DNA of 18,137 nucleotides from Candidatus Altiarchaeota archaeon (lineage in GTDB: Archaea; Altiarchaeota; Altiarchaeia; IMC4; SCGC-AAA252-I15), in NCBI GenBank assembly GCA_043800705.1, contig JAZDMS010000002.1, positions 1 through 18,137 of the forward strand, written 5' to 3'. Made by a program: the position numbers and the translations under genes. The notes under the pieces are model-generated. The model worked only from the letters and a program-made list of their open reading frames with translations. It made no database searches and was not told the DNA's origin. Positions 2,131 through 17,171 of the stretch are shown here, piece after piece. Within the stretch, counting starts at the first letter, position 1; the number at the start of each line of letters is the position of its first letter.

Positions 2131-3024
2131 TTATGGGGCCTGTTTGGCGGCCTTTATCGCTTCGATGGCTGTGTTTATTCCGTATGCTGTGAGGTGGCCT
2201 TTCTGGTCTGCGTAGCCGATCAGTATTATCCTGTTTAGGGCTTTTTCCGCGTCTGATTGGGCGATGTTGAGGGATTTCGCGATTTCTCTCTTGTCTGTGC
2301 TGTTGTATAGGGATATGAGGATGCGGGTTTCGATGGGGTTGAGCCTCCTGTATTCGCCGCGCATGACGGAGACGACGCGCATGAAGTCGCGCATTGTCTC
2401 CTTCTTCGCGACGATGATGATGCAGGACATCCCGGAGGCCTTTATCTGGTAGTCTATGGCCCTGGATTCGCCTCTTATGCTTTCTGGGGAGTAGCCGATG
2501 TATATTTCCCTGTCTACTGTGGCTATGGCGGGGTAAGGTATCTCCTCCTGGCCGTCGGCTTTTTTGAAGGAGACTTTTTGGCTGGTGACGGTGACGGTGT
2601 TTGGGTCTATTTTTCTCATGCGAAATTCGGTGGTGTTGAAGCCGAAGAGGTCGTCCAGTATGGCGTATTGGAGGTTGTATCTGGCTATGGGGACTTCGAG
2701 GGCCATGTCCCTTATCTGGTCGCGGCAGCCTTGCATCACCTTCAGTATCGTCTGTTTGAGGGGGGTCCAGGTCTCGTTGACGCCGTATTGGTTTTCGAAT
2801 GCTTCGGCGACGGACATGAGGGTGTAGTATATTATGGGTCGGTGCTTCTCCTCTGCGTCGGTTATCCTCAGGGTCCCGTTCTCAACGGCGTATTTTACGC
2901 CTTCGGAATCGAGCGTTTTAGTGTTCCAGTCGAGGGCGGCCTTGGTCAGCTTCGGGTTCACCCTGCTCAGGTGGGCTGTGGCGGCGGCAAGCATGACGGC
3001 ATATATACTGGCCCCGGGCTCCAT
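2131..3024 (-). CDS. Hypothetical protein: unknown N-terminal helical region, PH-like domain and C-terminal winged helix, resembling the C-terminal half of archaeal taxis adaptor CheF
   Basis: VTVTSQKVSF..EIPYPAIATVDRE (PH-like) followed by LNPIETRILISLY..IAKSLNI..AEKALNRIILIGYAD..LTAYG, a pattern recalled from CheF C-terminal domains. Begins 6 nt after the KaiC-like gene. Confidence 0.55.
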   Translation of the reverse strand: MEPGASIYAVMLAAATAHLSRVNPKLTKAALDWNTKTLDSEGVKYAVENGTLRITDAEEKHRPIIYYTLMSVAEAFENQYGVNETWTPLKQTILKVMQGCRDQIRDMALEVPIARYNLQYAILDDLFGFNTTEFRMRKIDPNTVTVTSQKVSFKKADGQEEIPYPAIATVDREIYIGYSPESIRGESRAIDYQIKASGMSCIIIVAKKETMRDFMRVVSVMRGEYRRLNPIETRILISLYNSTDKREIAKSLNIAQSDAEKALNRIILIGYADQKGHLTAYGINTAIEAIKAAKQAP

Positions 3025-3030
3025 GTTTCG

Positions 3031-3732
3031 TTATTCGACGTCGCCGAACATTTGCGCATCTGGCGAGATCATCATCCCGTCGGAGGTTATCTTGAACGGG
3101 CACAGTCTCGTCGAGTGGTTGGTGTCTCGCATCTTGATTATCTCGAGGACCCTCAGTCTGTCCCTCTCCTTTGGTATGAGGTACATGTTTATCACGCCGT
3201 CGGCGACGAACTCCTCCATGTCGAATTTGGCGTCCGACCGCTTGTTCGCGGATTTTTCGAGCGCCAGCAGCGTCGTGCAGTCGAGGTCTCCGAGGTATGT
3301 GAGGAGTTCGTAAAGGTTGTTGCGGTATGCGTCGTCGCCCCTGAAGTACAGGCGCAGGAGCGTCAGGCTGTCGAGGACGACCCTTTTGACTCCGTGTTCT
3401 TCGACGTAGTTGCCTATTATGTCCTGCAGGTGGTTGAAGTCGTCGATCTTCACCCTCGTGACTGCGATGTGTGTGCTGAGGTATTTTTCCCAGTCCCATG
3501 ATCCGAATAGCGCCTTGGCGCCTTTCACGACCCTTTCGGGGCTTTGTTCGAGGGATATGAAGAGCCCTTTGTCGTTGTATTGCGCCGCTCCGCGGTAGAG
3601 GAATTCGTACAGGAGCGTAGTCTTTCCGCTTCCTGGGCCGCCGCAGATTATGACGTGCCTTCTTTTCACGAATCCGCCGCCTAACAAGTCGTCAAGTCCG
3701 GGTATGCCTGTGGGGACGCGTTCAACCATCAT
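3031..3732 (-). CDS. Single-domain KaiC/RAD55-like RecA-fold ATPase
   Basis: RVPTGIPGLDDLLGGG, Walker A GGPGSGKT, SLEQ, Walker B VVLDS, EEFVADGVI, IIKMRDTNH. GGTGA ribosome-binding site upstream. Confidence 0.93.
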   Translation of the reverse strand: MMVERVPTGIPGLDDLLGGGFVKRRHVIICGGPGSGKTTLLYEFLYRGAAQYNDKGLFISLEQSPERVVKGAKALFGSWDWEKYLSTHIAVTRVKIDDFNHLQDIIGNYVEEHGVKRVVLDSLTLLRLYFRGDDAYRNNLYELLTYLGDLDCTTLLALEKSANKRSDAKFDMEEFVADGVINMYLIPKERDRLRVLEIIKMRDTNHSTRLCPFKITSDGMMISPDAQMFGDVE

Positions 3733-3751
3733 ATCACCTAGAGAGTTTATG

Positions 3752-3778
3752 TTATGTATTTCCCTGGCTGATTATAAA
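3752..3778 (-). promoter_or_regulatory. Archaeal promoter (TATA box TTTATAAT plus downstream AATACATAA element) for the kaiC-like/cheF-like pair
   Basis: TTTATAAT on the minus strand at 3778-3771 and AATACATAA at 3760-3752. Confidence 0.6.
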
Positions 3779-3785
3779 CGGCTCA

Positions 3786-5369
3786 TCAGGCCCTTACCAT
3801 CGTGAAACTGCCGTATTCGGACTTTGTCAGCCTCTCGCCGGGGGCTATCCTTATGAGGTATAGTTCCGGGGTCTGCGCAACCCTTATGATGCCGAATGTC
3901 GTGATCGGCGGTGCGATGCTCACGTGTATCGGCCTGTTTGTGAAGAAGTGGGGATTCAGGGGAATCTCGTATATGGCGATGCCGAATAGGACGAGCGAAT
4001 ACCTGTCCGTCAGTGAGGCGGATTTGAGAAGCCTGTCCTGTTCTGCCTTCGGCAGTTTTTCGATTTTGATCTCGGAGCGGTGCAGCAGGACGTATACGGT
4101 CCTGTTGTAGTCGACGGGGAGCGTTTCCCCCACCGATGCGTCGATCCTGTCGATGTTGACTATCTCCGCGGCGGGGTTGTAGTACCTGAGTCCGTCTATG
4201 TAGTTGCCTGCGATGAGTTCGTCTATGAGTATCACGGGCTTCGCGCCGCTGTCGTATAGCTGAGGCAGCCGCCTGTATTCGTCGTATCCGTATTTGTTTC
4301 CGCAGAGCATGAGGACGCTGTAGAATGCGCCGGATATGGCCAGTAGCGCGGCCGCCGCCGCGAAGAGCTTTTCCTTTTTGATGTTCGATAGGAGCCTTGC
4401 TGATATGAGCGCTGCGAAGGGCGCGAGGGGGAGGAGGTAGTAGCTGTGTTTGTTGTATGCGAGGAAGAAGGCGATGAATAGGGCGCAGAATGCTATGGGT
4501 AGGGTGTCCTCTTTCCTCCTCCTGTATGCCGCATAGAGCATCCCTAAGGTAAAAACCGCCGCGATGAGCGGTGAGAGGCCCCAGAACGCCTCGTTCAGGA
4601 GGATCTGCGGGTCTTTGAGGCCTCCTCCTTCCTCCGAGACCGGTAGCATTATCCTGCTGGCCTGTCCGCCGATGAATCTGTCGCCGTTTTGGAGGATGTT
4701 GTAGGCCGCGTAGGGCGAGCTCGCCAGCGCGAACCCCAGGGAGAGCGTCAATACGTTCCGCCATCTCCCTTTCATGAGCTCCAATGCGGCTAATCCGATT
4801 AGGAAGAGGACGGCCGGCTGTTTCGCTGTGAATGCTGCCCCGAGGATGAGTCCCGTCGCCATGAATCCGCCTGCGAGGTAGAGGTATACTCCCGCGAGCC
4901 CGAGGGCCATGAATAAGGGGTCGGTCTGGACGTTTCTGCCGACTATCACGTTCATGGGGGTGAACGCGAGGATGGCTGCGGCCGCGAGGCCGGTCCGCTT
5001 GTCGTATATCCTGCGTCCGATCGTGTAGATGAGCGCCGTTGATGCGAGGCTGAAGATTATGGGCACGATCCTCGCCGAGGCTTCGCTTTCGCCGAATGCC
5101 ATGAAGGAGAATCCGAGCAGGTAGGCGGTGAGGGGGGGTATGTTGTTGTCGATTATGCCGCTTTCAAGGTGCGGGTAGGAGAGCGGGTTTTTCGCGATCG
5201 ACCTGCCCAGTTCCGCGTAGAACGCCTCGTTCGTGGCGCCGTGGAATCCGCCGAAGGCGTCACCGATGCGGTTGGTGTAGAGGATGAGGCTTGCCGCCAG
5301 TATCACGGCCAGGACGTGCCATCCGCGCATTCTCTTTTTCTTCCCGGTTTTTCGCCTGCTTTTTGCCAC
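3786..5369 (-). CDS. GT-C fold glycosyltransferase (ArnT/PMT-like, family 39/83)
   Basis: Multi-TM protein with NEAFYAELGR, NIPPLTAYL, FGESEASARIVPIIF, AAAILAFTP, QTDPL, AFTAKQPA and YYLLPLAP motifs, and a soluble C-terminal domain. GTG start 1 nt after the upstream stop. Confidence 0.85.
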   Translation of the reverse strand: MAKSRRKTGKKKRMRGWHVLAVILAASLILYTNRIGDAFGGFHGATNEAFYAELGRSIAKNPLSYPHLESGIIDNNIPPLTAYLLGFSFMAFGESEASARIVPIIFSLASTALIYTIGRRIYDKRTGLAAAAILAFTPMNVIVGRNVQTDPLFMALGLAGVYLYLAGGFMATGLILGAAFTAKQPAVLFLIGLAALELMKGRWRNVLTLSLGFALASSPYAAYNILQNGDRFIGGQASRIMLPVSEEGGGLKDPQILLNEAFWGLSPLIAAVFTLGMLYAAYRRRKEDTLPIAFCALFIAFFLAYNKHSYYLLPLAPFAALISARLLSNIKKEKLFAAAAALLAISGAFYSVLMLCGNKYGYDEYRRLPQLYDSGAKPVILIDELIAGNYIDGLRYYNPAAEIVNIDRIDASVGETLPVDYNRTVYVLLHRSEIKIEKLPKAEQDRLLKSASLTDRYSLVLFGIAIYEIPLNPHFFTNRPIHVSIAPPITTFGIIRVAQTPELYLIRIAPGERLTKSEYGSFTMVRA

Positions 5370-5370
5370 C

Positions 5371-6342
5371 TTAGAGCAACAATCCGATCACGTAGTCGAA
5401 TGCGTAGAACATGAGGAGGGTCAGCGGCATCAGGAGCATGAGGTATTGCACGAGATACTTGTCTTTGCCGTGCCTTATTATCGCGATGAGCCAGCTTGCT
5501 ATGAGTACCGTGATGCTCATGTTCCAGAACGATATTGACTCCAGGAATTCCGGTGTGAGTGTGAGCCTTCCGAATGTTATTCCTCCGACGTTCTCGACTT
5601 CGGGCATATCGGTCAATAACTCCTCCGTGATGGTCCTTATGGTCTTTATGAAATGGATCGAGACCGCGGAAAGGAGCGGCGCCCCGACGACCACGATGAA
5701 GGTGATGAACAGGACGTAGCTTTTGCTGCGGGTGATGATCTCCCTCCTGAGGTCCATGTCCTCCATGATGTCCTTCGCCATGTCGGAAAGGAGCGTGGCG
5801 AGGGGGCCTCAGGTCCTCATCCCCTCTATGAAGAGTTCTATGGCGTTTTTGAAGGCCTGGGACCTGACCCTCGTCGTCATGTCCCTCAGGGCTTCGTTGA
5901 ATTGCATCGTGCTGAGGGACAGGGCGACGGCCCTGTCTATCTCGTACTTGAGTATCCCGAATTCAGGCCTTGAGCTCTCATTGACCGCCTGGAAGGGTGT
6001 CATGCCGGAGTTGAGGTTGGCTGCGACAAGTTGCAGGAAGTTGGGGAGGACCTTCTCGACCGCCCGTCCCCTGCTTTCGGCCCTGAAGAATAGCGTGAGG
6101 TATGTCGCGACGTGGAAGATGAGGATGGCGACCAAGAGGACGAGCATCGTGGCGATGAAGTTCTGGACTGTGAAGAAGAGGGCGGCCGCCGAGACTGGGA
6201 GCACCACTGCGCTGATGACGAAGGCGCGCCCGAGCCAGTAGTCGGCGGACATGGCGCTGCCGCAGGAAAGGAGCAGGGCGGAGACCTTTTCCCTGATGGT
6301 CTTCGGAAAGAACCGGGATGTGACGTAGAAAGCCCTATCCAT
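5371..6342 (-). pseudogene. Type II secretion system F (TadB/TadC/ArlJ-like) pilus platform protein interrupted by one in-frame TGA at 5809-5811
   Basis: ORFs 5809..6342 and 5371..5781 are in the same frame and read EGMRT*GPLATLLSDMAKDI across the stop. Motifs LPNFLQLVAANLNSGMTPFQA and PEFGILKYEI. Joined length 323 aa. Confidence 0.8.
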
Positions 6343-6404
6343 GCCTTTATGTATTACCCTATCACATTATTATTAAGCACGGTCAATATGTATCTGGGGC
6401 TTTT
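6343..6404. promoter_or_regulatory. Compact divergent promoter with a central AT tract (TTATTATTAA, 6367-6376) usable as TATA box in both directions
   Basis: 62-bp gap between divergent starts; the AT tract is 25-38 nt from both ATGs. Confidence 0.55.
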
Positions 6405-7112
6405 ATGGAAGAGCGGATAAAGACGGGGATCAGCGGATATGATAACCTTCTTGGCGGCGGCTTCGTACCGCATAGCGTCAACCTCATATGCGGCTGCAGC
6501 GGCTCGGGGAAGACCCTTTTCACCATGTCCTACCTGTACAACGGCGTCCAGCAGTTCGGCCAGAGGGGGGTCTACATCACCCTCGAGGAGATGAAGGACA
6601 ACATCATAAGGGATTCGAAGGCTGTGGGCATGGACGTCGGTGCCGTCGATGACGAGAAGCTGATGATCTACGACATGTCGAGCCTGAGGCTGAATGCGGT
6701 CCAGACCAGCGACGAGATCGACTCGAACGAGAGCCCGCTGCGCCTTGACAACCTCCTTGAGTTCATCAGGCTAAACTACAGCGACGTAGCCCGTCTCGGC
6801 CTCGACAGCATAGTCCCGATAGCGATAGCCTACCACGACGAGCACGTCTTTAGGGCGGAGCTGTTCAGGTTCATGATGTCGCTGAAGCAGATGGGCATCA
6901 CCGTCGTGTTCACGACCGAGATCGCCCTGTCATCCAACGACACGAGCAGGTTCGGGATGGAGGACTTCCTCGCGGACTCCGTCACCCTCCTTAGGGTGAG
7001 GGAGGAGTGGGGCCGCCAGATCAAGGTCCACAAGATACGCGGCTCGAATCACATGAGGAACTTCGTCGACTACGACATCTCCTCTTCTGGCATTAAGGTA
7101 ATGTACAAGTGA
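6405..7112 (+). CDS. Single-domain KaiC/RAD55-like RecA-fold ATPase (second copy)
   Basis: RIKTGISGYDNLLGGG, Walker A GCSGSGKT, ITLEE, Walker B LGLDS, FTTE, EDFLADSV, VHKIRGSNH. Confidence 0.92.
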   Translation: MEERIKTGISGYDNLLGGGFVPHSVNLICGCSGSGKTLFTMSYLYNGVQQFGQRGVYITLEEMKDNIIRDSKAVGMDVGAVDDEKLMIYDMSSLRLNAVQTSDEIDSNESPLRLDNLLEFIRLNYSDVARLGLDSIVPIAIAYHDEHVFRAELFRFMMSLKQMGITVVFTTEIALSSNDTSRFGMEDFLADSVTLLRVREEWGRQIKVHKIRGSNHMRNFVDYDISSSGIKVMYK

Positions 7113-7116
7113 TACC

Positions 7117-7434
7117 ATGTCAAAGCTGGGTTCCGACCTCTTGACGTTTATGGTCAAGTGGTCCGGCAAGTCGGGGGGGCTCATATTAGTCAACGAGCTG
7201 AAGAAGCTGGGCATAGTCAACATAGATTCTATGTCCGACGAACAGAAGGAGAAGCTTATGACGGGGCTTACGCAGGACTATCTTTGCGTGTTCCTCGGCC
7301 ATAGCAGGTTCCTCATGGCGAGGGCGGAGCTGGTGGGGATACTCGGCATTAATCCCGACTCCTACAGGGTCAACGACAGGGGTTACGGGCATGTGCCGCG
7401 GTCTCCGAACCTCATGGGCAAGCCGACCGGTTGA
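7117..7434 (+). CDS. Small helical hypothetical protein (105 aa), likely partner of the KaiC-like ATPase
   Basis: Starts 4 nt after the KaiC-like stop, fills the gap to the convergent gene and is followed by a T-run. Shares the GxxG..E[LI]KKLGI..F[LV]G pattern with the N-terminus of 13984..14700. Confidence 0.75.
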   Translation: MSKLGSDLLTFMVKWSGKSGGLILVNELKKLGIVNIDSMSDEQKEKLMTGLTQDYLCVFLGHSRFLMARAELVGILGINPDSYRVNDRGYGHVPRSPNLMGKPTG

Positions 7435-7441
7435 ATTTTTT

Positions 7442-8329
7442 CTATGCCGAGTAGATGAGGGGTCTTCTGCTTTTTATCAGGCCTACAAGCCCTATCTGTA
7501 TGCTTATGCATATCGCTAAGACGAATGTGTAGCTGGTCTCGTTTATGCCGGTTCCCATGAGCGACGTCAGGACGACAAGCACCGTGGTTATGATGGTGGG
7601 GATTGCGACCGCGAACAGCATGTATACCATGCTCAGGACGTTCAGCTCCTGTATGTAGTTTTGGATTTTCATCTTCTGATCCCTTATGAGGGCCTGGATG
7701 AGGCCGGAGAGGGCCTCTTTGATGCTGGTGCCTGACTTTACGGCGTTGACGATCTGCCATATGGCGTTTCTCATGTAGTCGCTGGAGGTCCTGAGGGCGA
7801 GGGTTTCGAGGGCTTCGTCGAGGGGGGCGCCCTGGTTAGTTTCCTCGATCACCTGCCTGAGGTCCCTGGATACGAGGCCGTGGTCTGATTCCGAGACCCT
7901 TTTGATGCTGTCGAAGAGCGATAGTCCCGCGCTTATGTTAAGTAGCAGGTCCTTGAGTGCGTATATGAGGTCTTTGTCCACGAGTTCCGCCCTTTTGAGG
8001 GCGAGGATCCTGGGATACCTGAGAAGTATGAAGAAGTCGAGGATGAGGATGATTGCTGCGGGTATTGCCGCCAATTGGAATTCCTGGCCTGGGGCGAGTT
8101 CGAGGGCTGCGAGGGGGACGTATGTGAATGCGAACAGGAGCATGCCGAGGGTGATTGCTGAGAATATGGATGTTATGACGTATTCTTCGGCTGACATGTC
8201 GATGTTGGCCATGACGACGTCGCTTTTGAGCTCGGGGACGAATTCGGTCAGGTATTCGCCCTGTTTTTGGAAGGTCTGCGCCAGCCTTTTGCCCGTTCGT
8301 TGGGGGATGACCATGGCTATGACGCGCAT
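7442..8329 (-). CDS. Type II secretion system F (TadB/TadC-like) pilus platform protein
   Basis: DKDLIYALKDLLLNISAGLSLFDS, GAPLDEALETLA, WQIVNAVKSGTSIKEAL and TM segments; directly abuts the ATPase stop. Confidence 0.9.
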   Translation of the reverse strand: MRVIAMVIPQRTGKRLAQTFQKQGEYLTEFVPELKSDVVMANIDMSAEEYVITSIFSAITLGMLLFAFTYVPLAALELAPGQEFQLAAIPAAIILILDFFILLRYPRILALKRAELVDKDLIYALKDLLLNISAGLSLFDSIKRVSESDHGLVSRDLRQVIEETNQGAPLDEALETLALRTSSDYMRNAIWQIVNAVKSGTSIKEALSGLIQALIRDQKMKIQNYIQELNVLSMVYMLFAVAIPTIITTVLVVLTSLMGTGINETSYTFVLAICISIQIGLVGLIKSRRPLIYSA

Positions 8330-10072
8330 TCAGATCCCCTCCATGCCTTTTTTCTTGTTCACCGTCGCCAGGAGGTCGTCTTTGGCGGTGTAGTAGGTGT
8401 TCATGACCATGCCGATGTCGTCTATTTTGTTTATCTTGTTGCCTACGAGCCAGTCGAGTATCTGCTTCTTCTGCCTCATGTCCTCCTCTATCTCCTTGAC
8501 GCTCATCCCTGTGTAGAGGTTGAGGTCGTTGAAGACCCTGGTGCTCCTATCTATGTCTTCGAAGGAGTCCGTCTTCACCCTCCACCTGTAGAGGTATTTC
8601 AGCTCGAGGCGCCGCTCGGTCGTACCGGGCAGTATCTCCGCGACCTCGAAGGTCCTTCTGATGCCGTGGAGCCTGTCCCTGTACTGGGTCATTATCACCT
8701 GGAGGGATTCGAGCTCGGCTTCGGGTATGTGGATGGGGGGTTCGGTGACGCGGCGGCGCACCTGCTGGCAGGTATCGGCGTGCATGGTCGAGTATACGGA
8801 GTGTCCGGTGTGCATCGCCTCGAACAGGACCTCGGCCTCGCTTCGGTCCCTTATCTCGCCTACGATGACCCTGTCGGGCCTCATCCTGAGGGAGGATATG
8901 ATGAGATCTAGCATGCTGACCCCCCCCAGGTTGTCGGCGTTGGGATTCCTGGTCGTCAGCTGTATCCAGTTGAGTTTCAGGTGGGGCGGCAGCTGTATCT
9001 CCCTAGTGTCTTCGATGCTTATGACCCTCTGACCCGGCGGTATAAAGGCGCAGAGGCTGTTTAGCATGCTCGTCTTCCCGGAGGCTGTTCCGCCTGCGAC
9101 CAGGACGGAAAGCTCGTATTGGATGCACAGCCACATGAACGCCCCGATCTCGGTGGATATGGTGTGGTGTGTGAGGCCCATGAAGTCGACTATGGTCCAC
9201 GGCTCCCTCGCGAACTTCCTGATGGTTATGGTGTTGCCCTGCGACGATATCGGGAACATGGAAGCCATGACCCTGTCCCCTGTTATGAGCCTCGCGTCCA
9301 TGAGGGGGTTGAGGTTGGTGATGTCCTTGCCTATCCTCCTGCCTATCTGGGCTGCGTAGTCGAAGACGTCGTCTTCGCTCTGGATGACGATGTTCGTCTT
9401 CAGCCACCCGTATCTCCTGTGGTAGATGATGATAGGCGAACCGCCGGAGTTGATGCATATCTCCTCTATGAGGTCGTCTCCGAGCATCAGTTCCAGGTCC
9501 CCGAGGCCGTATATCCTGTGGAGGGCGAGGCCGGAGAGTATGTCGGCCTGGTCTTCGGTGACCGGCATCTCGGCGAGTATCTTCTTCCTTGCGTCTTCCT
9601 TGAACTTCTTCTTCATCTCCTCGACCTTGTGGGGGTCGGAGACCTCCTCGGTCCTCGTCGAGATCTTGCCTGCGAGATCCTTGATGACTGCGGATAGGAG
9701 CGTGGCGGTCGCCTGCCCGAGGACGGGCAGGGTTATGCAATATGTGCGCATGATGTCGCCTTTCACGTCGTGGATGCCTATCTCCGCCGGGACGCCGTTG
9801 ACCTTTATCGAGTATTTTTCGAGCTGTTTTCCGCCTATGTCGAGGCATATGCTGGCCCTGTGCAGCTTCTTCAGGGGCCGCCTCTTGACGGTCGGCTTCT
9901 TTAGGACATTCAGGGAATAGTTCACTTCAAGGATGCCGTCCAGCCTCCTGATCCAGCCGTCGGCGGCCTTCAGGTCGACGCCCGCGTCCTTGGCGGCCTG
10001 GGTCAGGTCCGTATCCTGGTCGTATTTTATGGCATCCAAGAGCGTGTCGGCCTGCGTCCTGATCTCAACCAT
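8330..10072 (-). CDS. Type IV pilus assembly ATPase (CpaF/TadA/ArlI family) with N-terminal winged-helix-like extension
   Basis: IEEICIN, TITIRKF, Walker A GGTASGKT, SIEDTRE, LRMRPDRVIVGEIR, His box AMHTGHSVYSTMHA. Start placed at ATG 10072, about 25 nt below a TATA box. Confidence 0.95.
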   Translation of the reverse strand: MVEIRTQADTLLDAIKYDQDTDLTQAAKDAGVDLKAADGWIRRLDGILEVNYSLNVLKKPTVKRRPLKKLHRASICLDIGGKQLEKYSIKVNGVPAEIGIHDVKGDIMRTYCITLPVLGQATATLLSAVIKDLAGKISTRTEEVSDPHKVEEMKKKFKEDARKKILAEMPVTEDQADILSGLALHRIYGLGDLELMLGDDLIEEICINSGGSPIIIYHRRYGWLKTNIVIQSEDDVFDYAAQIGRRIGKDITNLNPLMDARLITGDRVMASMFPISSQGNTITIRKFAREPWTIVDFMGLTHHTISTEIGAFMWLCIQYELSVLVAGGTASGKTSMLNSLCAFIPPGQRVISIEDTREIQLPPHLKLNWIQLTTRNPNADNLGGVSMLDLIISSLRMRPDRVIVGEIRDRSEAEVLFEAMHTGHSVYSTMHADTCQQVRRRVTEPPIHIPEAELESLQVIMTQYRDRLHGIRRTFEVAEILPGTTERRLELKYLYRWRVKTDSFEDIDRSTRVFNDLNLYTGMSVKEIEEDMRQKKQILDWLVGNKINKIDDIGMVMNTYYTAKDDLLATVNKKKGMEGI

Positions 10073-10095
10073 ACAAGAATACAATTAGCCGCCCG

Positions 10096-10105
10096 TTATA
10101 TATAA
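10096..10105 (-). promoter_or_regulatory. TATA box TTATATATAA for the ATPase-platform genes
   Basis: Palindromic AT tract 24-33 nt upstream of ATG 10072, consistent with a leaderless transcript. Confidence 0.6.
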
Positions 10106-10121
10106 TCCGGCGCGGTATTTC

Positions 10122-11396
10122 CTATCCTCTGGCGAGCCACAACTCGCTTGTCCTCATGATGGGGTCGTCCTTGCGGAGCGAGCAGCCTGAGCCGGCATAC
10201 ACGGGTTCGGCATCGAAAGGAAACGTTGCAGTGGCGTTCACTGTGCCTCTGCTGGAATTGGTTTCGTTGTTGATCTCAAGGAGCATGCTGCCGGGGGTCG
10301 GCTCTTGCCCGAAGACTATCCTGATCCAGTCTCCGTCGTCGAAGGTGATGTTCCATCCCGTTCTGGCGGACACGCTCGCCTTCGATGTGGTGAATGTGTA
10401 GTTTGCGTTCGCGAACTCGGCCCGTATGCCGAGGGCGAGGCCGCCGCTGCTCGTGTTCTGCATCTCGAAGGGGTCTGGGGGTGGTGAGATCGGCGGCTCG
10501 TTGGGCGGGTCCAGGTACCTTGTGCTCAGAAGCACGACGTCTACGGATTCGGTGCCGGAGGACGGGTCGGGTATGATTTTGACGGTCTTTTGGCCTGCGG
10601 TCATGTTGAACACGACAAGGGTGTCGTTGAACCACCTGTAGTAGGGTCCTGTCGCCTCCCAGTCCCTGAGGTCAAAGCGGGTGGAGTTTACGCCCCCTAT
10701 CTCGACGGTGAAGTTCTTGCTTGCGTTGTCGTTGTAGACGCGGACCCAAAGGGTGTAGTTGAGGGGTAGCGGCACGTCGACCACCCTTTGAAGGAGGCTG
10801 AAGTCAGACATGTATGTCCCCTCCGAGGCGTCGGCTTCGTCCGTCGCCGTGCCTCCGTCGGCGAGGAAGTCCTCGGCTTCGAGCCAGATGAAGTCGCTTA
10901 TCGAATCGTCGCCGAAGCCGAGGATGAGGTTGAATTCCGCAAGCCCGTAGCCTGTGCTCATGTTCCGAAACCACAGAGTCCTCTTGCTGGAGTTGCCCCA
11001 CCCCCACGAGTAGTTCAGCGGGTAGACTGGGTGTCCGAGCTCGGCAGACGGGTCGGTTAGGTTGCCGCAGTCCAGCGCAAGCTGGGAGCCGGATTCGGCG
11101 GAATAGGTGGAGTTGACGAATTTAGCGTATCCCGCGGCCGCTGCCGGGATGTCCCATGCCGCGGGGACCCTGTCGAAGAAGGAGACCTTCGTCTGCCCCC
11201 CCGTTTTTTCGACCGATGCCTTGAGGTCCTGGATCCCTGCGACGTCGCCTGCGGCGTCGTCGAACATGGTCGCCGTCTTCGCGGCCTTGATGTCGGATCT
11301 AGCGATCGAGACGGACTTCCCGGAGAAATAGTATGTCATCATGAAGAGCGACAGGAACATCAGGACCGTTAGGGTGGTGAACAGGTATCCTTTCAT
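10122..11396 (-). CDS. Class III signal peptide pilin-like adhesin with an inserted carbohydrate-binding-module-like domain
   Basis: MKG|YLFTTLTVLMFLSLF N-terminus with ATGA overlap to the upstream gene. Internal WLEAEDF..DASEG..YTLWVR..AGQKTVKI..VDVVLLS resembles CBM6/35 jelly-roll domains. More than 15 N-x-S/T sequons. Confidence 0.75.
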   Translation of the reverse strand: MKGYLFTTLTVLMFLSLFMMTYYFSGKSVSIARSDIKAAKTATMFDDAAGDVAGIQDLKASVEKTGGQTKVSFFDRVPAAWDIPAAAAGYAKFVNSTYSAESGSQLALDCGNLTDPSAELGHPVYPLNYSWGWGNSSKRTLWFRNMSTGYGLAEFNLILGFGDDSISDFIWLEAEDFLADGGTATDEADASEGTYMSDFSLLQRVVDVPLPLNYTLWVRVYNDNASKNFTVEIGGVNSTRFDLRDWEATGPYYRWFNDTLVVFNMTAGQKTVKIIPDPSSGTESVDVVLLSTRYLDPPNEPPISPPPDPFEMQNTSSGGLALGIRAEFANANYTFTTSKASVSARTGWNITFDDGDWIRIVFGQEPTPGSMLLEINNETNSSRGTVNATATFPFDAEPVYAGSGCSLRKDDPIMRTSELWLARG

Positions 11397-11782
11397 CTGT
11401 ACCACACCCTCGCCGAGGCCACGTAGATCCTCGTGTTGTTGACTATGGTCCTCCTGGAGACGACGTACCTGTCCGGCGCCCCGCAGCCTGTTTCCGCGCC
11501 GAAGACCCTGCCTCCGAGCGCGTCGTCGACGGTGATGTTGACGCAGATGTTGTCCGGCAGGTATGCGATGGAGTCCGCCAGCGGCGAGCCGTCGCCTTCC
11601 AGGGCCGTCAATATGCTGCCGTCAACGTCTGAGACTGCCAGGAAGTCCCCCCCTGCCAGGTAGAGGTATTCTTCCGTCTCCAGCCTGGGCGCGTTGAGGT
11701 AGTACATTATCACGGCGATGAAGACGGTTGCGGCTATGAGCGCCAGCATGGCATCAATCGTGAGTACGAATCCCTTTTTCAT
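11393..11782 (-). CDS. Minor pilin-like protein, class III signal peptide (129 aa)
   Basis: MKKG|FVLTIDAMLALIAATVFIAVI; ATGA overlaps with both neighbours. Confidence 0.8.
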   Translation of the reverse strand: MKKGFVLTIDAMLALIAATVFIAVIMYYLNAPRLETEEYLYLAGGDFLAVSDVDGSILTALEGDGSPLADSIAYLPDNICVNITVDDALGGRVFGAETGCGAPDRYVVSRRTIVNNTRIYVASARVWYR

Positions 11783-12297
11783 CTTTTCTCGTAGTATGCC
11801 TCCAGCTTCAACTCGACCCTTGTCCCGTTCATCAGGGCATATCTCCTCACTATCCTGCGCTCGGATGCGTCCAGGACGGCGCCCTTGGAGTAGAGGACCT
11901 CCGGGGTGCCGCCGTAGTCCCGGCTGACCGTTATGCTGAAATTCTCGCTCCCGAGGCCCATGATCTCCCTCAGGCTCTGGTAGTTTGCGGATTCCAGGGC
12001 CGTCAGCTTCTCCTCGGACAGGACGTTCTCCGCGGATGCGAGGCCGAGCGCATAGACCCTGTCTGGGGTGACTTGGCCGTTTTGCCAGTCCGCCGGGTTT
12101 CCGGGGGTTTTTACGAGCGCGGAGGAGATGTCCAGGAGCCTGCTTTGCCTGGATGACGAGTCCCTGTATGCGTCCATCCTGGCGTATGCGGTGCCCCACA
12201 GCCACATCATGCTGACTATGATCACGAGGAATATGAACAGTGCCGCGATGAGGTCCATAGTGAACACCGCCCCCCTCCCGCGCGTTTTTTTGCTCAT
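11779..12297 (-). CDS. Minor pilin-like protein, class III signal peptide (172 aa)
   Basis: MSKKTRGRG|AVFTMDLIAALFIFLVII; LVKTPGNPADW..LGLA motif typical of archaeal pilin-like proteins. Confidence 0.8.
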   Translation of the reverse strand: MSKKTRGRGAVFTMDLIAALFIFLVIIVSMMWLWGTAYARMDAYRDSSSRQSRLLDISSALVKTPGNPADWQNGQVTPDRVYALGLASAENVLSEEKLTALESANYQSLREIMGLGSENFSITVSRDYGGTPEVLYSKGAVLDASERRIVRRYALMNGTRVELKLEAYYEKR

Positions 12298-12305
12298 TTT
12301 TTTCC

Positions 12306-13499
12306 TCAGACGTATGTGACGTCGTAGTATAGGATGTCGATGCGGCATTGTTTGTTGTTCTGGTCGTGTTTGGCATACTGTCTGGCGTATGCGCCGTCCG
12401 CCGACGCTCCGAAGAAGTCGGAGCAGCTCCATCCGGCGGAGGCTGTGACATCCACGCATGTGAGCCCGGGATTGGCGGCAGCGTGGCAGACGATGTCCGC
12501 AGGCTCCCATGCTGCGCCGTCCTTCGAGACGCCGACGTGGCAGTCAGACGGGGTCCTGGACATGCTCCACCATTCGAAGCATATGGTGACTGCCTTTATC
12601 GTATTGCAGTCCGCAACGCTCGTGTTCCTATACGTCAACATGACGCCGCAGTACTCGCCGGCGTCTGCCCTATGGGCTTCAAGCTGGTTGTCGTCGCATG
12701 TGACGCGGTCTCCTGGGCAGGCTCCGGGATAAAGGCCCTCACACTGGTCGGGGAAGGAACCGGCAGTTGCCTCCTGGATCGCGGCATTGCAAGACTGCGG
12801 GGACACCCGTGCCATTACTCCCTGTACGATTGTTGTCGTGGTCGAAGTTGACGTCGTCGTGGTCGTTGTAGTGAGGCAGCAGCATGTGTCTGTGTTTTTT
12901 CCTGTTGCGCAATGTCCGTCTCCCCCCGCCTCGTGGACTTCACCGTTTTGGGGGCATTTGCTTGGATTCTGCCTGCATGTTCCCCCCGAATACTCCTGGA
13001 TGCCCCTGCAATAGCCGTCGCATGTTGTCGGGGGGAGTGTCGTCGTGGTGCTCGTCGTCGACGTGGTCGTCGTGGAGGTTGCGAAAGATACGGCTCTCAC
13101 GGTGCCGTTGTCGTTTGTGAGCGTCACGATCCCGCCGGTGTAAATGGGGAAGGGGGGCTTCGAGCCCGCGACTTGGCCGTTGATGAACTTCCGCTCGAAC
13201 TCCGCCCCGTATGCGGGCACTTTCACCGTGACGAGCCTGCTGTCCACGGTCACGGTATAGTTGACCCCCCCGACGAGCCTTACGGGGAGCGTCATGTTGA
13301 GCCTCGAGCCGCTTCCTGCTAGATAGACGCTGTTGTAGTTGTCGGATATCTCCTGCGCCCGGTTCTGGGCGTCGATGGACCACAGGCTCTGCGCCGCGCT
13401 ACGCTGCCCCTGGGCTATGAAGTTTATCGACACCAGAAAGATCAGGGTAGCGAGAGAGAGGCTTAACATGAACTCCACAGTCACCTGTCCCCTAGTCAT
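12306..13499 (-). CDS. Pilin/adhesin with class III signal peptide, Thr-rich linkers and Cys-rich domains (397 aa)
   Basis: MTRG|QVTVEFMLSLSLATLIFLV; pilin domain, poly-Thr, 8-Cys module, poly-Thr, Cys-rich C-terminal domain. Confidence 0.82.
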   Translation of the reverse strand: MTRGQVTVEFMLSLSLATLIFLVSINFIAQGQRSAAQSLWSIDAQNRAQEISDNYNSVYLAGSGSRLNMTLPVRLVGGVNYTVTVDSRLVTVKVPAYGAEFERKFINGQVAGSKPPFPIYTGGIVTLTNDNGTVRAVSFATSTTTTSTTSTTTTLPPTTCDGYCRGIQEYSGGTCRQNPSKCPQNGEVHEAGGDGHCATGKNTDTCCCLTTTTTTTSTSTTTTIVQGVMARVSPQSCNAAIQEATAGSFPDQCEGLYPGACPGDRVTCDDNQLEAHRADAGEYCGVMLTYRNTSVADCNTIKAVTICFEWWSMSRTPSDCHVGVSKDGAAWEPADIVCHAAANPGLTCVDVTASAGWSCSDFFGASADGAYARQYAKHDQNNKQCRIDILYYDVTYV

Positions 13500-13501
13500 C
13501 T

Positions 13502-13930
13502 TCAACACGACCCGTCCGCCCTGCCGAGCTCGACCCCCAGCCCGGAATATTCGACGTCGACACAGTAGCCCCCGGAGACCTGCGGAACGCTGCCTGTGAG
13601 GTTGGCGTCGGTGTAGACGTCGAAGATCTCCTGTTTGCCGCTGACCATGGCGACCGCCTGGATCCGGCCCCCGCCGGCCTGCATGGTGGATATGCTGATG
13701 TTGGTCGAATCCGGCACCGCGACGTACACCCTTGTCCTGGCGTCCCTTCCCTGGCTGTAGACGAAGTCGCATGCCTGCTTCAGGTCGTTGAGGGCGGCCT
13801 TGGCCTTGCCGACCTTGATGTTGTCATTGAAGAACCGCATATTGTCCTCGTTCATGGACAGCATGACCGCCAGGATCAGTATGGCGACTGAGAGTATCAC
13901 TATCCATTCTACCGCGGCCTGACCCTTCAT
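13502..13930 (-). CDS. Pilin-like protein, class III signal peptide (Q+1, E+5 type)
   Basis: MKG|QAAVEWIVILSVAILILAVML; DFVYSQG..RVYVAVP. Confidence 0.88.
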   Translation of the reverse strand: MKGQAAVEWIVILSVAILILAVMLSMNEDNMRFFNDNIKVGKAKAALNDLKQACDFVYSQGRDARTRVYVAVPDSTNISISTMQAGGGRIQAVAMVSGKQEIFDVYTDANLTGSVPQVSGGYCVDVEYSGLGVELGRADGSC

Positions 13931-13983
13931 CGGCGTAAAGTATTAAACCCGTAAAATATAAGCTCCCTCGCAATTAAGATAAG
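13931..13983. promoter_or_regulatory. Divergent promoter between the pilin operon and the Cys-repeat gene pair
   Basis: 53-bp AT-rich gap with central TAAAATATAA (13952-13961), 22-32 nt from both starts. Confidence 0.5.
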
Positions 13984-14700
13984 GTGCCCAATCCCAAACT
14001 GGAGGACCTACGGAAGAAGGCATTCCTTCTGTACGCCGGCCCGAAGGGGCCGGAGCTCGTGAACAAGGAGATCAAAAAGTTAGGCATCAAGGAGGACAAG
14101 CTGAACGAATACCAGCTGAAGATACTCCTCAACAACGTTATCAAGACCGTCTTCATCGACTTCGTCGGCCTGGAGGCCACGAAAAAAGCCCTCGCACAGG
14201 ACGTCACCCACGTTCCCGGCTATCATACGTTCATCGAGGAGGAGAGCGAGCCTATACACATATTAGAGCGTTTCCGCTTCATGCGGTGGGTTGTCGCTTT
14301 TTTGGCCCTGTCGATAGTAGGTGTATTGTTCCTGGGGGGCTATTATATGCTCTCATTCGACAGGGAAGGGCTCTGCGACAACAAGAAGGACGTCGACGGC
14401 CGCGACGCCTGCTATCTTTCCCTGGCCTCCTCGCGCGGGAACGTCTCTTTCTGCGACAGCCTAAGCGTCTCGAACAGGCGATACAACTGCTATTCCCTCA
14501 TAGGGCGGAAGCTCAACGACACCCTCATATGCGACAGGATACCCGGCAACGACGTGGGCCTCATAGTCATGCACGACAACTGCCTGATGTGCGTGGCCGT
14601 ATCCCTAAAGAACGGTAGCATGTGCAAATCTTTCCATAATCCGATCACCGTGGACGAGTGCCTGAGCCAGATGGACAGGGCGATATCGCTGTCATGCTAA
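13984..14700 (+). CDS. Single-pass membrane protein: N-terminal helical domain, TM helix, C-terminal Cys-rich repeats
   Basis: GTG start; TM RWVVAFLALSIVGVLFLGGYYML; about four C-x(10-16)-C repeats (RDACY, RYNCY, HDNCL, VDECL). Confidence 0.8.
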   Translation: MPNPKLEDLRKKAFLLYAGPKGPELVNKEIKKLGIKEDKLNEYQLKILLNNVIKTVFIDFVGLEATKKALAQDVTHVPGYHTFIEEESEPIHILERFRFMRWVVAFLALSIVGVLFLGGYYMLSFDREGLCDNKKDVDGRDACYLSLASSRGNVSFCDSLSVSNRRYNCYSLIGRKLNDTLICDRIPGNDVGLIVMHDNCLMCVAVSLKNGSMCKSFHNPITVDECLSQMDRAISLSC

Positions 14701-14734
14701 GGCATTTTAATCCTTCCAATCCAAGGTTTATACG

Positions 14735-15118
14735 ATGAGGCGGTTCTTCGCGGTCCTGGTGGCGGCGCTCATGTTGGGTTGCATCAGCCCGGACGACGGC
14801 CAGATGACCTCAACTTCCGTCACGGCGGGTCAGCAGACGTCGACCACTACATTGGCCTCCAAGGTCGTCCAGACGAGGGAGGAGGCGTCTGAGGGGTCTG
14901 TTGCCGACTGCACGAAGTCGGCGGACGAGAGGCTCAGGAACATATGCTGGCGGGATCAGGCCGTCCGCTCAGGCAATCCTGCGGGTTGCGAGAAGATAAG
15001 CCAAGACGGGGCGAAGGATGAGTGCCTCTATAAAGTAGCGGTAAAATCTGGCGGCAAGGCCGTCTGCGGAAGGATAGCAGACGCCGGGATACGGGCTGTC
15101 TGCGAGTCGAAGACCTGA
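14735..15118 (+). CDS. Putative lipoprotein with Thr-rich linker and Cys-rich repeats
   Basis: MRRFFAVLVAALMLG|C lipobox-like signal, TSTSVT..TSTTT linker, repeats RNICW, KDECL, RAVCE. Confidence 0.8.
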   Translation: MRRFFAVLVAALMLGCISPDDGQMTSTSVTAGQQTSTTTLASKVVQTREEASEGSVADCTKSADERLRNICWRDQAVRSGNPAGCEKISQDGAKDECLYKVAVKSGGKAVCGRIADAGIRAVCESKT

Positions 15119-15165
15119 CCTATCTTGGATTCAGAGAAGGTCCCTGAGTTTACCTAGGGGGTGAA

Positions 15166-15222
15166 TGCTATAACCGCTGAATACGAGATATAGACTGCCA
15201 TAACCGCTGAATACGAGATATA
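15166..15222 (+). repeat. Two-copy tandem repeat, 30-bp period (TGCYATAACCGCTGAATACGAGATATA)
   Basis: 23 bp identical at 15170-15192 and 15200-15222. Confidence 0.9.
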
Positions 15223-15224
15223 AT

Positions 15225-15251
15225 ATCAAAATCGCATGAAACGATTTTGAT
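15225..15251. terminator. Perfect 10-bp inverted repeat between convergent genes; possible terminator hairpin or operator
   Basis: ATCAAAATCG-CATGAAA-CGATTTTGAT, 4 nt past the stop of the ATPase gene. Confidence 0.5.
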
Positions 15252-15255
15252 GATC

Positions 15256-16752
15256 TTATTCGGTGGGCTGTATGTTGAACTGGTTGGAGGCCTTCAGCTC
15301 CGACAGGATGAGTTTCGGGTCGCTGTGGTACCTCTGGAAGAACTTAATGACCTTCGAGTTCTCCCTGATGCCTTTTGCCATCATGTATTGGAGTACCTTC
15401 TCCCTGATCAGGAGCTCCGTCGTGAGCCTCTTCTTTGTGATGCCGCACTCGCGGGCGATCTTCTCTGTGAGCAGGATGGGGTATTCGGTCCTCTTTATGA
15501 TGTCGTTGGCTATGTCGTAGGTGTATATTTCCCCGAGCTGGACCAGGTCGCCTTCTATTCCGGACACCTCAGACACCTGGGTTATCCGCCTCATCATCCC
15601 CCTCTTGCGGTCGTATATCCTGTTCATGACGACGATGAGGTTCAGAAGGGGCATCATCCTTAGGGGAACGTTCATTGGGGGTTCCATGAGGCGGATCGTG
15701 GTCTCGCGGGCGTTGTTGGCGTGCAAGGTCCCCATGCTGCCGTCGAGGCCGATGTCCATAGCGACGAAGAGCGTCTCGGCCTCGTTGCCCCTGACCTCTC
15801 CGACGATGACCCTGTCGGGCCTCATACGAAGCGAGTTCTTGAGCAGGTTGGGCATGCTTATGTGGTGTGTCATGTCGACTGTAGTCGCGGACGACGCCTC
15901 CAGTGGCACCCAGTTGTCTATGAAGTCGAAGTTCAGCTCCAGAGTGTCCTCTACAGTTATGACCCGTTCGGTCTTCGGGATGAACATGGCCATGGCGTTC
16001 ATCAGGGTCGTCTTCCCGGAGCCGGCTCCGCCGGCTATTATCAAGTCGATTGGCGAGAGGCCGAATCCTTCGACGCAGACCCAGAGGAACGCGGCAAGCT
16101 CGTATGTGGCGCTCCCCTTCTCGATGAGGTCCAGCATGTTGTACGGGACCCTCTTGAACTTCCTTATCGTGACCGCCGGCCCGTACGGGGCCGCGGGTGA
16201 GATGGCTACGTTGGCCCTTGAGCCGTCCGGCATATGGGCGTCCAGTAGGGGGTTTAACTCGTTGAGCTCCCTTCCGACGTAGTGAGCGAGCCAGTGTATG
16301 AGGTCGTTGACGGCCTCGTAGCGGTCGAAGAGGATGTTCGTGACACACATCCCGTATTTGCGGTGGACCACGAATACGGGCGTGTTTATCCCGTTGACCA
16401 TTATCTCCTCCAATAGCTCGTCCCTCATGAGGGGGCCGAGGCGGCCGTAGCCGAGGAAAAGGTCGTCTATGATTGAGGAAACGATGTATTCGAGGTTTTC
16501 CGGGTTCGTCTTGGTCTCGTCTATCTTGGACCTAATGAAGCTTCGGAGGTAGTCCTCCTTCCCGTTGCTGTTGTGGATCTCGTCGAGTTTGGTTTTGACT
16601 TCCTTATAGTTGCCGATGAGGCCCCTAGCGTCGCTTATTATCCGCTTCTCGACGTCGCTGAGTTCGGGGGATAGGTAGATGTAGTAGGGTATCTGGCCGA
16701 CTTCCCCCTCCATTATCTTCACGTTGCCGTAAGATTCCAGCAGCTCCGGCAT
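15256..16752 (-). CDS. Second type IV pilus/secretion ATPase (CpaF/TadA family)
   Basis: LEEIMVNG, LDAHMPDGSRAN, VTIRKF, Walker A GGAGSGKT, TVEDTLE, LRMRPDRVIVGEVRG, GSMGTLHAN. Confidence 0.95.
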   Translation of the reverse strand: MPELLESYGNVKIMEGEVGQIPYYIYLSPELSDVEKRIISDARGLIGNYKEVKTKLDEIHNSNGKEDYLRSFIRSKIDETKTNPENLEYIVSSIIDDLFLGYGRLGPLMRDELLEEIMVNGINTPVFVVHRKYGMCVTNILFDRYEAVNDLIHWLAHYVGRELNELNPLLDAHMPDGSRANVAISPAAPYGPAVTIRKFKRVPYNMLDLIEKGSATYELAAFLWVCVEGFGLSPIDLIIAGGAGSGKTTLMNAMAMFIPKTERVITVEDTLELNFDFIDNWVPLEASSATTVDMTHHISMPNLLKNSLRMRPDRVIVGEVRGNEAETLFVAMDIGLDGSMGTLHANNARETTIRLMEPPMNVPLRMMPLLNLIVVMNRIYDRKRGMMRRITQVSEVSGIEGDLVQLGEIYTYDIANDIIKRTEYPILLTEKIARECGITKKRLTTELLIREKVLQYMMAKGIRENSKVIKFFQRYHSDPKLILSELKASNQFNIQPTE

Positions 16753-16755
16753 CGG

Positions 16756-16782
16756 TTATGTATTGTTGGCGGAAGATATAAA
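16756..16782 (-). promoter_or_regulatory. Archaeal promoter (TTTATATC plus AATACATAA) for the second ATPase
   Basis: TATA at 16782-16775 and AATACATAA at 16764-16756, 3 nt before the ATG. Confidence 0.6.
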
Positions 16783-16783
16783 G

Positions 16784-17131
16784 CTATCCGGGCTTCGGGG
16801 GCGACAGCATCGTCCTCAGTTCGGCCTGCATCTCGTTCAGTTTTTCGACGAGCTTCTTCTCCTGCTTCTCCAGGACCTTGATCTTGGCGTCGGCCATGTC
16901 GTGCTCGTCTGTGACGTATTTCATCCCCGCGTCCTTGCCGGTTTCGATGAGGATCGGGCCGACCATCCTGTAGACTTTGCCCTGGGTGAGGGATTCCAGC
17001 TCCTTTTTGGCGTTGTCGAGGTCGGTGTTCTGGAGCATGAGCTGCTGCTTCTGCATGGAGAGCATCTGGACCTGGTTCTGCAGCGTCTGGAACTGTGCGA
17101 GCTTGTCCTGAACCTGTTTCGGTACGTCCAT
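16784..17131 (-). CDS. pfdB: Prefoldin beta subunit
   Basis: VPKQVQDKLAQFQTLQNQ, KVYRMVGPILI, coiled-coil arms; conserved position after pcc1. Confidence 0.95.
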   Translation of the reverse strand: MDVPKQVQDKLAQFQTLQNQVQMLSMQKQQLMLQNTDLDNAKKELESLTQGKVYRMVGPILIETGKDAGMKYVTDEHDMADAKIKVLEKQEKKLVEKLNEMQAELRTMLSPPKPG

Positions 17132-17171
17132 GGCTTCAATACATACGAATTAGGGCTATAAAAGCTGGCCC

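Follow-up and report, generated by a model that had tools for sequence, protein, structure and literature searches.

A type IV pilus locus of an Altiarchaeota archaeon with a conserved KaiC-partner gene pair between its platform genes and a second, separable KaiC pair at its edge

To our knowledge, in all but two or three model species little is understood of how archaeal pili and archaella are switched on and off. A general role as signalling hubs has been proposed for KaiC-like ATPases, and few of their partners have been identified. A locus on contig C17 (JAZDMS010000002.1) of a Candidatus Altiarchaeota archaeon raises the question of why two genes for KaiC-like ATPases, each coupled to a partner gene of its own, should be interleaved with the genes of a type IV pilus. 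The window, the whole stretch of DNA that was analyzed (18,137 nucleotides, nt), is the entire contig and belongs to a metagenome assembly (GCA_043800705.1; 2.0 Mb, 43 contigs, 87.55% complete) that we label G000; relatives are labeled G001 and so on, fetched loci carry an L and contigs of G000 a C. Our preferred answer, to which we assign a probability of roughly 0.6, is that this is an Epd-like euryarchaeal type IV adhesion pilus locus with a CirA-like KaiC regulatory module. We prefer it because of the conserved gene order, the co-occurrence of one KaiC pair (KaiC2-p105) with the pilus ATPase (ATPase1), the family and fold assignments and published precedent. The genes of the pilus locus and its two KaiC pairs, with families assigned by Pfam and NCBIfam scans of open reading frames (ORFs), are these (aa, amino acids):

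2131-3024, minus strand: p297 (297 aa), PH-like and MarR-type winged-helix domains in its structural model
3031-3732, minus strand: KaiC1 (233 aa), PF06745, E 8.3e-54
3786-5369, minus strand: membrane glycosyltransferase of PMT_2/GT-C type (527 aa), PF13231, E 7.1e-17
5371-6342, minus strand: platform gene TadC-b (323-aa frame, read as 177 + 136 aa), weak T2SSF match (0.0024) in its front ORF, 5809-6342
6405-7112, plus strand: KaiC2 (235 aa), PF06745, E 2.4e-51
7117-7434, plus strand: p105 (105 aa), no Pfam or NCBIfam family
7442-8329, minus strand: platform gene TadC-a (295 aa), T2SSF PF00482, E 3e-17
8330-10084, minus strand: ATPase1, pilus assembly ATPase (584 aa), T2SSE PF00437, E 3e-30
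10122-11405, minus strand: large prepilin-like protein pil427 (427 aa), from its N-terminus
11393-11782, minus strand: prepilin-like pilN (129 aa), from its N-terminus
11779-12297, minus strand: prepilin-like pilO (172 aa), from its N-terminus
12306-13499, minus strand: prepilin-like pilP (397 aa), N-terminus MTRG/QVTVEF
13502-13930, minus strand: prepilin-like pilQ (142 aa), N-terminus MKG/QAAVEW, first gene of the pilin-ATPase-TadC operon

Gene order was compared with that of relatives, drawn from a set of 40 genomes (41 including G000), by tblastn of the window proteins against fetched regions, some of them on truncated contigs. The whole order is kept in four relatives, G006, G016, G003 and, in part, G015, at protein identities of 26-83%. 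In G006 and G016 it is present in full, running from p238 (a membrane protein gene taken up below) through the five pilins-ATPase1-TadC-a and then p105-KaiC2 to TadC-b-(GT4)-PMT-KaiC1-p297 and a triosephosphate isomerase gene (TIM), and G003 and G015 show the same order as far as their contigs extend. The core ATPase1-TadC-a-[p105, KaiC2]-TadC-b is also found in G008, and in G001 up to a contig end within KaiC2. Within the limits of the contigs, KaiC2 and p105 lie between two TadC genes in all six relatives that have an ATPase1 orthologue, and this position between platform genes is exact across three or more genera. Orthologues of ATPase1 (56-71% identity) occur in exactly six of the 40 relatives, the next best match standing at 48%, and those same six hold p105 at 41-70% identity; p105 matched eight of the 41 genomes, G000 and G024 included. 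This conservation of gene order is far beyond chance. An alignment-based search for related loci yielded only two, both of them known already. The initial annotation of the stretch, made from its letters alone, had named gene-neighborhood analysis as a check on its idea that the KaiC and pilus genes work together, and the linkage was borne out in relatives, for KaiC2-p105 in six of six and for KaiC1-p297, at the edge of the locus, in four.

A diverged copy of the KaiC2-p105 pair turned up in a different filament machine. G024, which belongs to another family, has a KaiC2-like gene (47% identity) and a p105-like gene (33%) between arlH and arlI, on the opposite strand; the flanking genes are a true arlH (244 bits, cut-off 215) and arlI (720 bits, cut-off 550), and the archaellum operon also includes ArlF/G-like genes and arlJ. 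In a tree of 25 KaiC-type sequences, from which one row with five stops had been dropped, KaiC2 of G000, G006 and G024 form a clade with support of 100/100, as do KaiC1 of G000, G006 and G020, and ArlH is remote from both.

Is the surrounding locus a pilus or an archaellum? It consists of two minus-strand operons, pilQ-pilP-pilO-pilN-pil427-ATPase1-TadC-a and TadC-b-glycosyltransferase-KaiC1-p297, with intergenic gaps of -13 to 53 nt; from the pilin genes down to ATPase1 the gaps are -13 to 37 nt, and TadC-a abuts ATPase1 without a gap. In five of the minus-strand genes the translation opens with a short basic segment that closes with K/R-G and leads into a hydrophobic helix (MKG/Q, MTRG/Q, ...GRG/A, MKKG/F and ...MKG/Y, the slash marking the predicted cleavage site). 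None of the five matches a Pfam pilin model; we assign them as pilins because of these N-termini and because several have paralogues beside other T2SSE/TadC loci of G000. Two of them have Q after the predicted cleavage site, and Q at +1 is typical of Epd pilins. Orthologues of pilQ in L013 and L014 are 59-63% identical. The pil427 protein carries 17 N-x-S/T sequons, and the C-terminal ~250 aa of pilP have Thr-rich linkers and 20 Cys. Orthologues of pilP align only to residues 1-135 and are proteins of about 140 aa lacking the C-terminal extension, possibly an adhesive module open to exchange. A plausible role for the PMT-type enzyme is O-glycosylation of the pilins in their Thr-rich parts. In relatives (L013 11888-12991 in G006; also L014, L015 and L066) a 367-aa GT4 glycosyltransferase gene lies between TadC-b and the PMT enzyme; this gene is not in the window.

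ATPase1 scores 263.8 bits against the ArlI model NF058587 (cut-off 550). A second T2SSE ATPase further along the window, ATPase2, scores 264.3 bits and shares 30% identity with it. No archaellin family was found among the window ORFs scanned, so that archaellin, ArlH and an equivalog-level ArlI are all lacking and the window locus is without the hallmarks of an archaellum. It has a T2SSE ATPase, a TadC/T2SSF platform encoded as two half-size genes and class III prepilins, and the genome supplies a prepilin peptidase, which together identify it as a pilus locus. The peptidase gene (Peptidase_A24, 38.4 bits over the cut-off) lies on contig C37 and none is in the pilus locus; its ORF has six hydrophobic segments by a crude hydropathy count and fits neither the long EppA type nor the short type decisively. 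G000 has seven T2SSE ATPase genes and four archaellin genes, and its archaellins and arlH-I-J are on contigs other than that of the window.

The gene content listed in the initial annotation (five pilin-like genes, two ATPases, two platform genes, a glycosyltransferase, two KaiC genes with partners, a membrane protein and a lipoprotein) is all present. For the platform genes, both of which are indeed there, one reading had to be amended: the gene of 177 aa is the front part of TadC-b. TadC-a has one T2SSF domain and four hydrophobic segments, and TadC-b aligns to it and to intact 323-aa orthologues. The TadC-b frame is broken by a TGA at 5809-5811 into ORFs of 177 and 136 aa in the same frame, and is unbroken (about 323 aa) in four relatives and two paralogues. 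The codon at this site is the invariant Gly of a GG motif in four of four relatives and two of two paralogues, and reads GGA in a relative of the same genus. Reading of the TGA as an amino acid was considered and rejected, since TGA is the ordinary stop of 10 of the 20 window genes; this, together with the Gly in relatives, makes the TGA a nonsense change or an assembly error and not recoding.

What are the two proteins wedged between the platform genes? KaiC2 runs opposite in strand to the pilus genes, with 4 nt between it and p105. We observed in addition that p105 and TadC-a are convergent with 7 nt between their stop codons (window 7432-7444), so that the transcripts may overlap. KaiC2 is a single KaiC domain, and six aligned sequences all keep its Walker A, LEE and Walker B. 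Its best match is the CI domain of KaiC (E 2e-51), the ArlH model gives it 37.3 bits (cut-off 215), and the NCBIfam KaiC equivalogs give KaiC1 and KaiC2 144.6 and 163.6 bits against a cut-off of 408. KaiC1 and KaiC2 share 30% identity. Where KaiC CI carries a putative KaiB-binding segment, which we take to be the B-loop, KaiC2 has a loop of similar length and KaiC1 is without about 14 residues. Neither a KaiB nor a KaiA gene was found in the window by the Pfam and NCBIfam scans.

The p105 protein is modeled as three helices (residues 3-31, 41-59 and 62-76) followed by a disordered tail. The tail carries the motif P-x-[ST]-P-x-[LM]-x-G-K-P, in which P94, P97 and G101 are invariant and K102 and P103 nearly so, with S or T before P97. 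A Protein Atlas search returned only unnamed bacterial clusters, at 0.85. Searched exhaustively with a profile, a set of 1.84 billion representative proteins gave 127 matches at E <= 0.001, 40 of them at E <= 1e-10. By length these fall into three classes, of about 80-105 aa, 235-240 aa and 320-360 aa (2-4 copies), and the few named matches are from Altiarchaeales and one Woesearchaeota. Two of the multi-copy kind are encoded in G000 (331-340 aa, 2-3 copies; C37 about 40912-42039 and C31 about 1019-2158; L042, L047), each with a CBS-domain gene downstream and the C37 copy with a receiver-domain gene upstream. A predicted complex of KaiC2 (6-row alignment) with p105 (16-row alignment) scored 0.01 against a mark of 0.32, a result that weighs neither for nor against binding.

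From these features we propose that KaiC2 would act as an ATP-driven single-domain KaiC switch whose state is read out by p105, because Walker A, LEE and Walker B are kept, the best match is the CI domain and a loop is retained where, as we assume, KaiB binds. Binding of p105 to KaiC2 is predicted, and p105 would be an adaptor taking the position of the clock protein KaiB. The pair may thus be a dedicated regulator of type IV filament machines, with an output on pilus expression or assembly, or possibly on the balance of pilus and archaellum, comparable to the action of CirA on archaellum genes.

Published systems offer close parallels. Among archaeal type IV pili, clade 1 (Epd of Methanococcus maripaludis) and many euryarchaeal clade 2 loci are described, in passages of PMC4858521, as having two tadC-like genes, one ATPase and about five pilin-like genes. 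The window locus is likened to Epd by this same layout and by the two pilins with Q after the cleavage site; it differs in having no prepilin peptidase within the locus and in the additional KaiC2-p105 wedge. The same source associates KaiC families with archaeal pilus loci, predicts a regulatory role for them and proposes that a small alpha-helical protein (arCOG03758) partnering a KaiC (arCOG01174) replaces KaiB. Our pair resembles that one in that a KaiC gene stands in or beside a pilus operon and adjoins a gene for a small alpha-helical protein; the published pair is from subclade 4B, mostly TACK, whereas ours is from Altiarchaeota and stands between two half-size TadC genes. CirA of Haloferax volcanii is described in passages of PMC10983859 as the product of a KaiC-like gene within the arl cluster, oriented against the other genes, that reduces transcription of arl genes. 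KaiC2 is likened to it by position and direction, since it too is found within a cluster of type IV filament genes and runs against them, as does the G024 copy, which has arlH on one side and arlI on the other. By contrast, those passages describe CirA without a p105-like partner, and the main context here is a pilus and not an archaellum. The likeness to cyanobacterial KaiC-KaiB is that CI is the KaiC domain to which both KaiC1 and KaiC2 align best; unlike cyanobacterial KaiC, each has one domain, not two, and no KaiB or KaiA accompanies them in the window.

The second pair, KaiC1-p297, behaves differently. KaiC1 is also one KaiC domain, with Walker A present and LEQ in place of LEE; its best match is again KaiC CI (E 2e-50), it scores 20.9 bits against the ArlH model (cut-off 215), and it is separated from p297 by 6 nt. 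An AlphaFold2 model of p297 built from 8 sequences (predicted local distance difference test score 88.3, predicted template modeling score 0.84) shows a helical part (1-106), a PH-like domain (about 112-226) and a MarR-type winged helix (227-297). The winged helix matches 5hsm_A (Z 12.3, root-mean-square deviation 1.5, 71 residues) and many other MarR entries, and the PH-like domain matches PH and PTB domains (Z 10.9; Foldseek E about 1e-4). Residues 1-106 have only a sub-threshold match to DUF5790 (18 bits, cut-off 26.8). A Protein Atlas search gave only leads below 0.9, to winged-helix regulators of Thermoplasmatota, and a word-indexed protein search only four proteins. The initial annotation had called p297 a CheF-like adaptor. 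That label does not hold at family level, as p297 gives no match to CheF-arch (PF04283) at E <= 0.01 and ends in a MarR-type winged helix; CheF 7ovp ranks 40th in a Foldseek search with the p297 model (E 1e-3, TM score 0.27/0.24), a likeness at the level of the PH fold only. KaiC1 would gate p297, most likely a DNA-binding protein.

Genes like p297 occur in 12 of the 41 genomes. A KaiC1-type gene (58-83% identical) lies directly upstream of p297 in eight of the nine relatives with fetched loci (G003, G006, G016, G015, G002, G018, G020 and G022; G011 and G019 are outside this count). G022 has two p297 loci, with only the last 45 KaiC1 residues before the contig start, and in G027 the contig ends too early to show the gene upstream of p297. 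Pilus genes are near KaiC1-p297 only in G003, G006, G016 and G015; in G018 and G020 the neighbors are unrelated genes, and in G000 itself no KaiC gene adjoins either of two p297 paralogues, on C1 and C11. Since KaiC1-p297 is found without pilus genes, the module is not pilus-specific, as had been supposed at first; it is a second, separable module, and only in some genera does it border the pilus locus.

The rest of the window bears on whether a surface sensor feeds these KaiC proteins. Its genes, toward the two ends of the window, are:

13984-14700, plus strand: p238 (238 aa), one-pass Cys-rich membrane protein, from hydropathy and alignment
14735-15118, plus strand: Cys-rich lipoprotein-like gene (127 aa) with an L-G-C lipobox-like signal at its start
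15256-16752, minus strand: ATPase2, second T2SSE ATPase (498 aa), E 9.5e-31
16784 onward, minus strand: prefoldin beta, Pcc1 and a zinc-ribbon protein, from ORFs and family scan
175-993, plus strand: tyrosine recombinase, from ORF and family scan
about 990-1379, minus strand: small membrane protein with no family, from ORF and family scan
1400-2095, minus strand: TIM, from ORF and family scan

The recombinase gene lies near the contig end, three genes away from the pilus locus. As the initial annotation stated, neither a histidine kinase nor a response regulator receiver nor a methyl-accepting chemotaxis protein is found among the window ORFs scanned, and archaellin is likewise absent from them.

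The p238 gene is divergent from the pilin operon and encodes a cytoplasmic helical N-terminal part, one hydrophobic segment (~residues 99-117) and an outer part with 10 invariant Cys. In seven of seven relatives examined (G001, G002, G003, G006, G008, G015 and G016) an ArlH gene follows within about 0.5 kb, with a small coiled-coil gene (cc) between the two where called, and the relatives' operon reads p238-cc-arlH-arlI-arlJ. In G006 the ArlH scores 225.8 bits (cut-off 215) and is followed by an ArlI of 716 bits (cut-off 550) and arlJ. In G000 cc-arlH-arlI-arlJ is on contig C42 (7404-11915), beside a hisI-like gene. The lipoprotein belongs to another block, lipoprotein-ATPase2-prefoldin beta-Pcc1, which is conserved in five of five relatives at a distance of 15-21 kb from p238. 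This segment of 15-21 kb, which includes cc-arlH-arlI-arlJ, is absent at window 14700-14735. The junction of p238 and lipoprotein in G000 therefore reflects a segment lost or moved by rearrangement, or a joint made in assembly, and the adjacency of the two genes is secondary. The sensor and lipoprotein that had been taken for a pair are adjacent only in G000: p238 travels ahead of archaellum motor genes and the lipoprotein with ATPase2 and the prefoldin gene. ATPase2 itself is an orphan pilus-type ATPase without a TadC neighbor, beside housekeeping genes (window 14735-17420).

A helical domain shared by p105 and the N-terminal part of p238 had also been put forward, and it fares poorly. The similarity is marginal (BLASTP E 0.002, 28% identity over 47 residues; hhalign E 0.0037 at a probability of 8.9%). 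Because the phylum-wide search used an alignment that already contained p238, and so is circular on this point, we rely on a profile built without p238 rows. This profile matched the window's p238 at E 0.11 and none of seven other p238 orthologues; in a set of 15,598 G000 ORFs with 8 added p238 orthologue sequences, p238 ranked next after three members of the p105 family. Homology of the two is thus possible, on a marginal similarity.

Several observations weigh against our preferred reading. Because TadC-b carries a stop codon in this assembly, this population may have an impaired pilus. For window 2131-12100 a look-up of sequencing runs returned none, and no holder of RNA either. In the fold search with the p105 model even the best match (Z 6.4) falls short of significance, with no KaiB-like or death-fold match of weight, a CARD domain appearing at rank 42 with Z 4.4. 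For p297, there is no match to the Pfam helix-turn-helix families, and the putative recognition helix, read from the sequence, is not markedly basic. The KaiC1-p297 pair occurs without a pilus gene in the fetched flanks of G018, G020 and G022, and in G002 it abuts p238-cc-arlH-arlI, with the pilus core missing: this relative of the same genus (70% complete; L066, contig C136 1-7000) has TIM-p297-KaiC1-GT4 and then p238-cc-arlH-arlI on one contig, with no pilin, ATPase1, TadC or KaiC2-p105 between KaiC1-GT4 and p238. Two further pilus loci of G000 hold a KaiC gene, on C35 between ATPase and TadC-a and on C24 after TadC, and the pilus-embedded KaiCs of C17, C35 and C24 do not form one clade. A single pilus-type subfamily of KaiC, which we had entertained, is accordingly unsupported by the tree, though compatible with its poorly resolved backbone.

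Other explanations of the locus were weighed against the same data. KaiC2, with p105, might be no signalling switch and instead serve the pilus machine as a structural or motor part, attached to the hexamer of ATPase1 as ArlH is to ArlI. ArlH likewise has one KaiC domain and is encoded alongside an ATPase of the T2SSE family and a platform of the TadC family; bioRxiv 10.1101/2021.03.19.436134 presents it as KaiC-like and as partnering ArlI, and KaiC2 sits among ATPase and platform genes in six of six relatives. We nevertheless consider this role unlikely, given that both KaiC1 and KaiC2 fall far short of the ArlH cut-off and that the true ArlH of G000, encoded on C42, is distant in the tree; moreover, KaiC2 is transcribed opposite to the machine genes, a KaiC2-like gene coexists with a true ArlH in the same G024 cluster, and the G000 pilus locus on C31 does without a KaiC. 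It could also be argued that the neighborhood carries no meaning, the KaiC modules being general multi-copy regulators that happen to lie beside or inside a pilus locus. In its favor are the 19 KaiC-type domain stretches in G000, KaiC1-p297 in other contexts and the p297 paralogues on C1 and C11 that lack a KaiC neighbor; it is at odds with the fixed position of KaiC2-p105 between platform genes across three or more genera, the one-to-one co-occurrence with the ATPase1 orthologue and the recurrence of a diverged pair inside a type IV filament cluster in G024, and overall we regard it as distinctly improbable.

The linear pathway proposed in the initial annotation, in which a signal goes from a Cys-repeat sensor, by way of a helical domain that p105 shares, to the KaiC ATPases, a CheF-like adaptor and the pilus motor, could draw on the marginal p105-p238 similarity, on the place of p238 as next-ranked ORF, on the PH-like domain of p297, which is of the fold class of CheF, and on the finding that neither a CheF nor a CheW family is present in G000, at its 87.55% completeness. 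Against it stand the profile comparisons of p105 with p238, the MarR-type winged helix of p297 with no CheF-arch match, and the place of p238 at the head of an arlH-arlI-arlJ operon in seven of seven relatives, with the lipoprotein in another block. We judge it very improbable. An Epd-like pilus locus with a CirA-like KaiC module is the reading we retain. In a bolder extension of it, KaiC2-p105 would be a CirA-like switch that sets the balance of adhesion pilus and archaellum, and p105 would represent a new KaiB-replacing adaptor fold reused in three ways (alone, as 2-4 tandem copies in proteins encoded beside CBS-domain and receiver genes, and perhaps in the cytoplasmic portion of p238). This we offer as a tentative and rather doubtful possibility; if it were true, the 40 kb of the ancestral region would amount to a supercluster for surface appendages, under the control of three ATPases of the KaiC family.

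Part of this picture is already in print: KaiC families at archaeal pilus loci, two tadC genes per locus and a KaiC with a helical partner are all found in passages of PMC4858521 (2016), which make no mention of a module of KaiC1 with a PH and winged-helix protein. New are two partner families, p105 and p297, with no Pfam or NCBIfam match reaching a curated cut-off, the one-to-one co-occurrence of KaiC2-p105 with ATPase1 and the reuse of that pair in an archaellum operon, as well as the apparently ancestral back-to-back placement of pilus and archaellum motor operons. The locus thereby offers two conserved KaiC-partner pairs, one with a predicted helical adaptor bearing a [ST]-P tail motif and one with a predicted output protein that joins a PH-like domain to a winged helix, and the first of these pairs tracks type IV filament machines across genera. 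The finding would gain further weight if, in a lineage that yielded no chemotaxis genes, that pair does coordinate pilus with archaellum.

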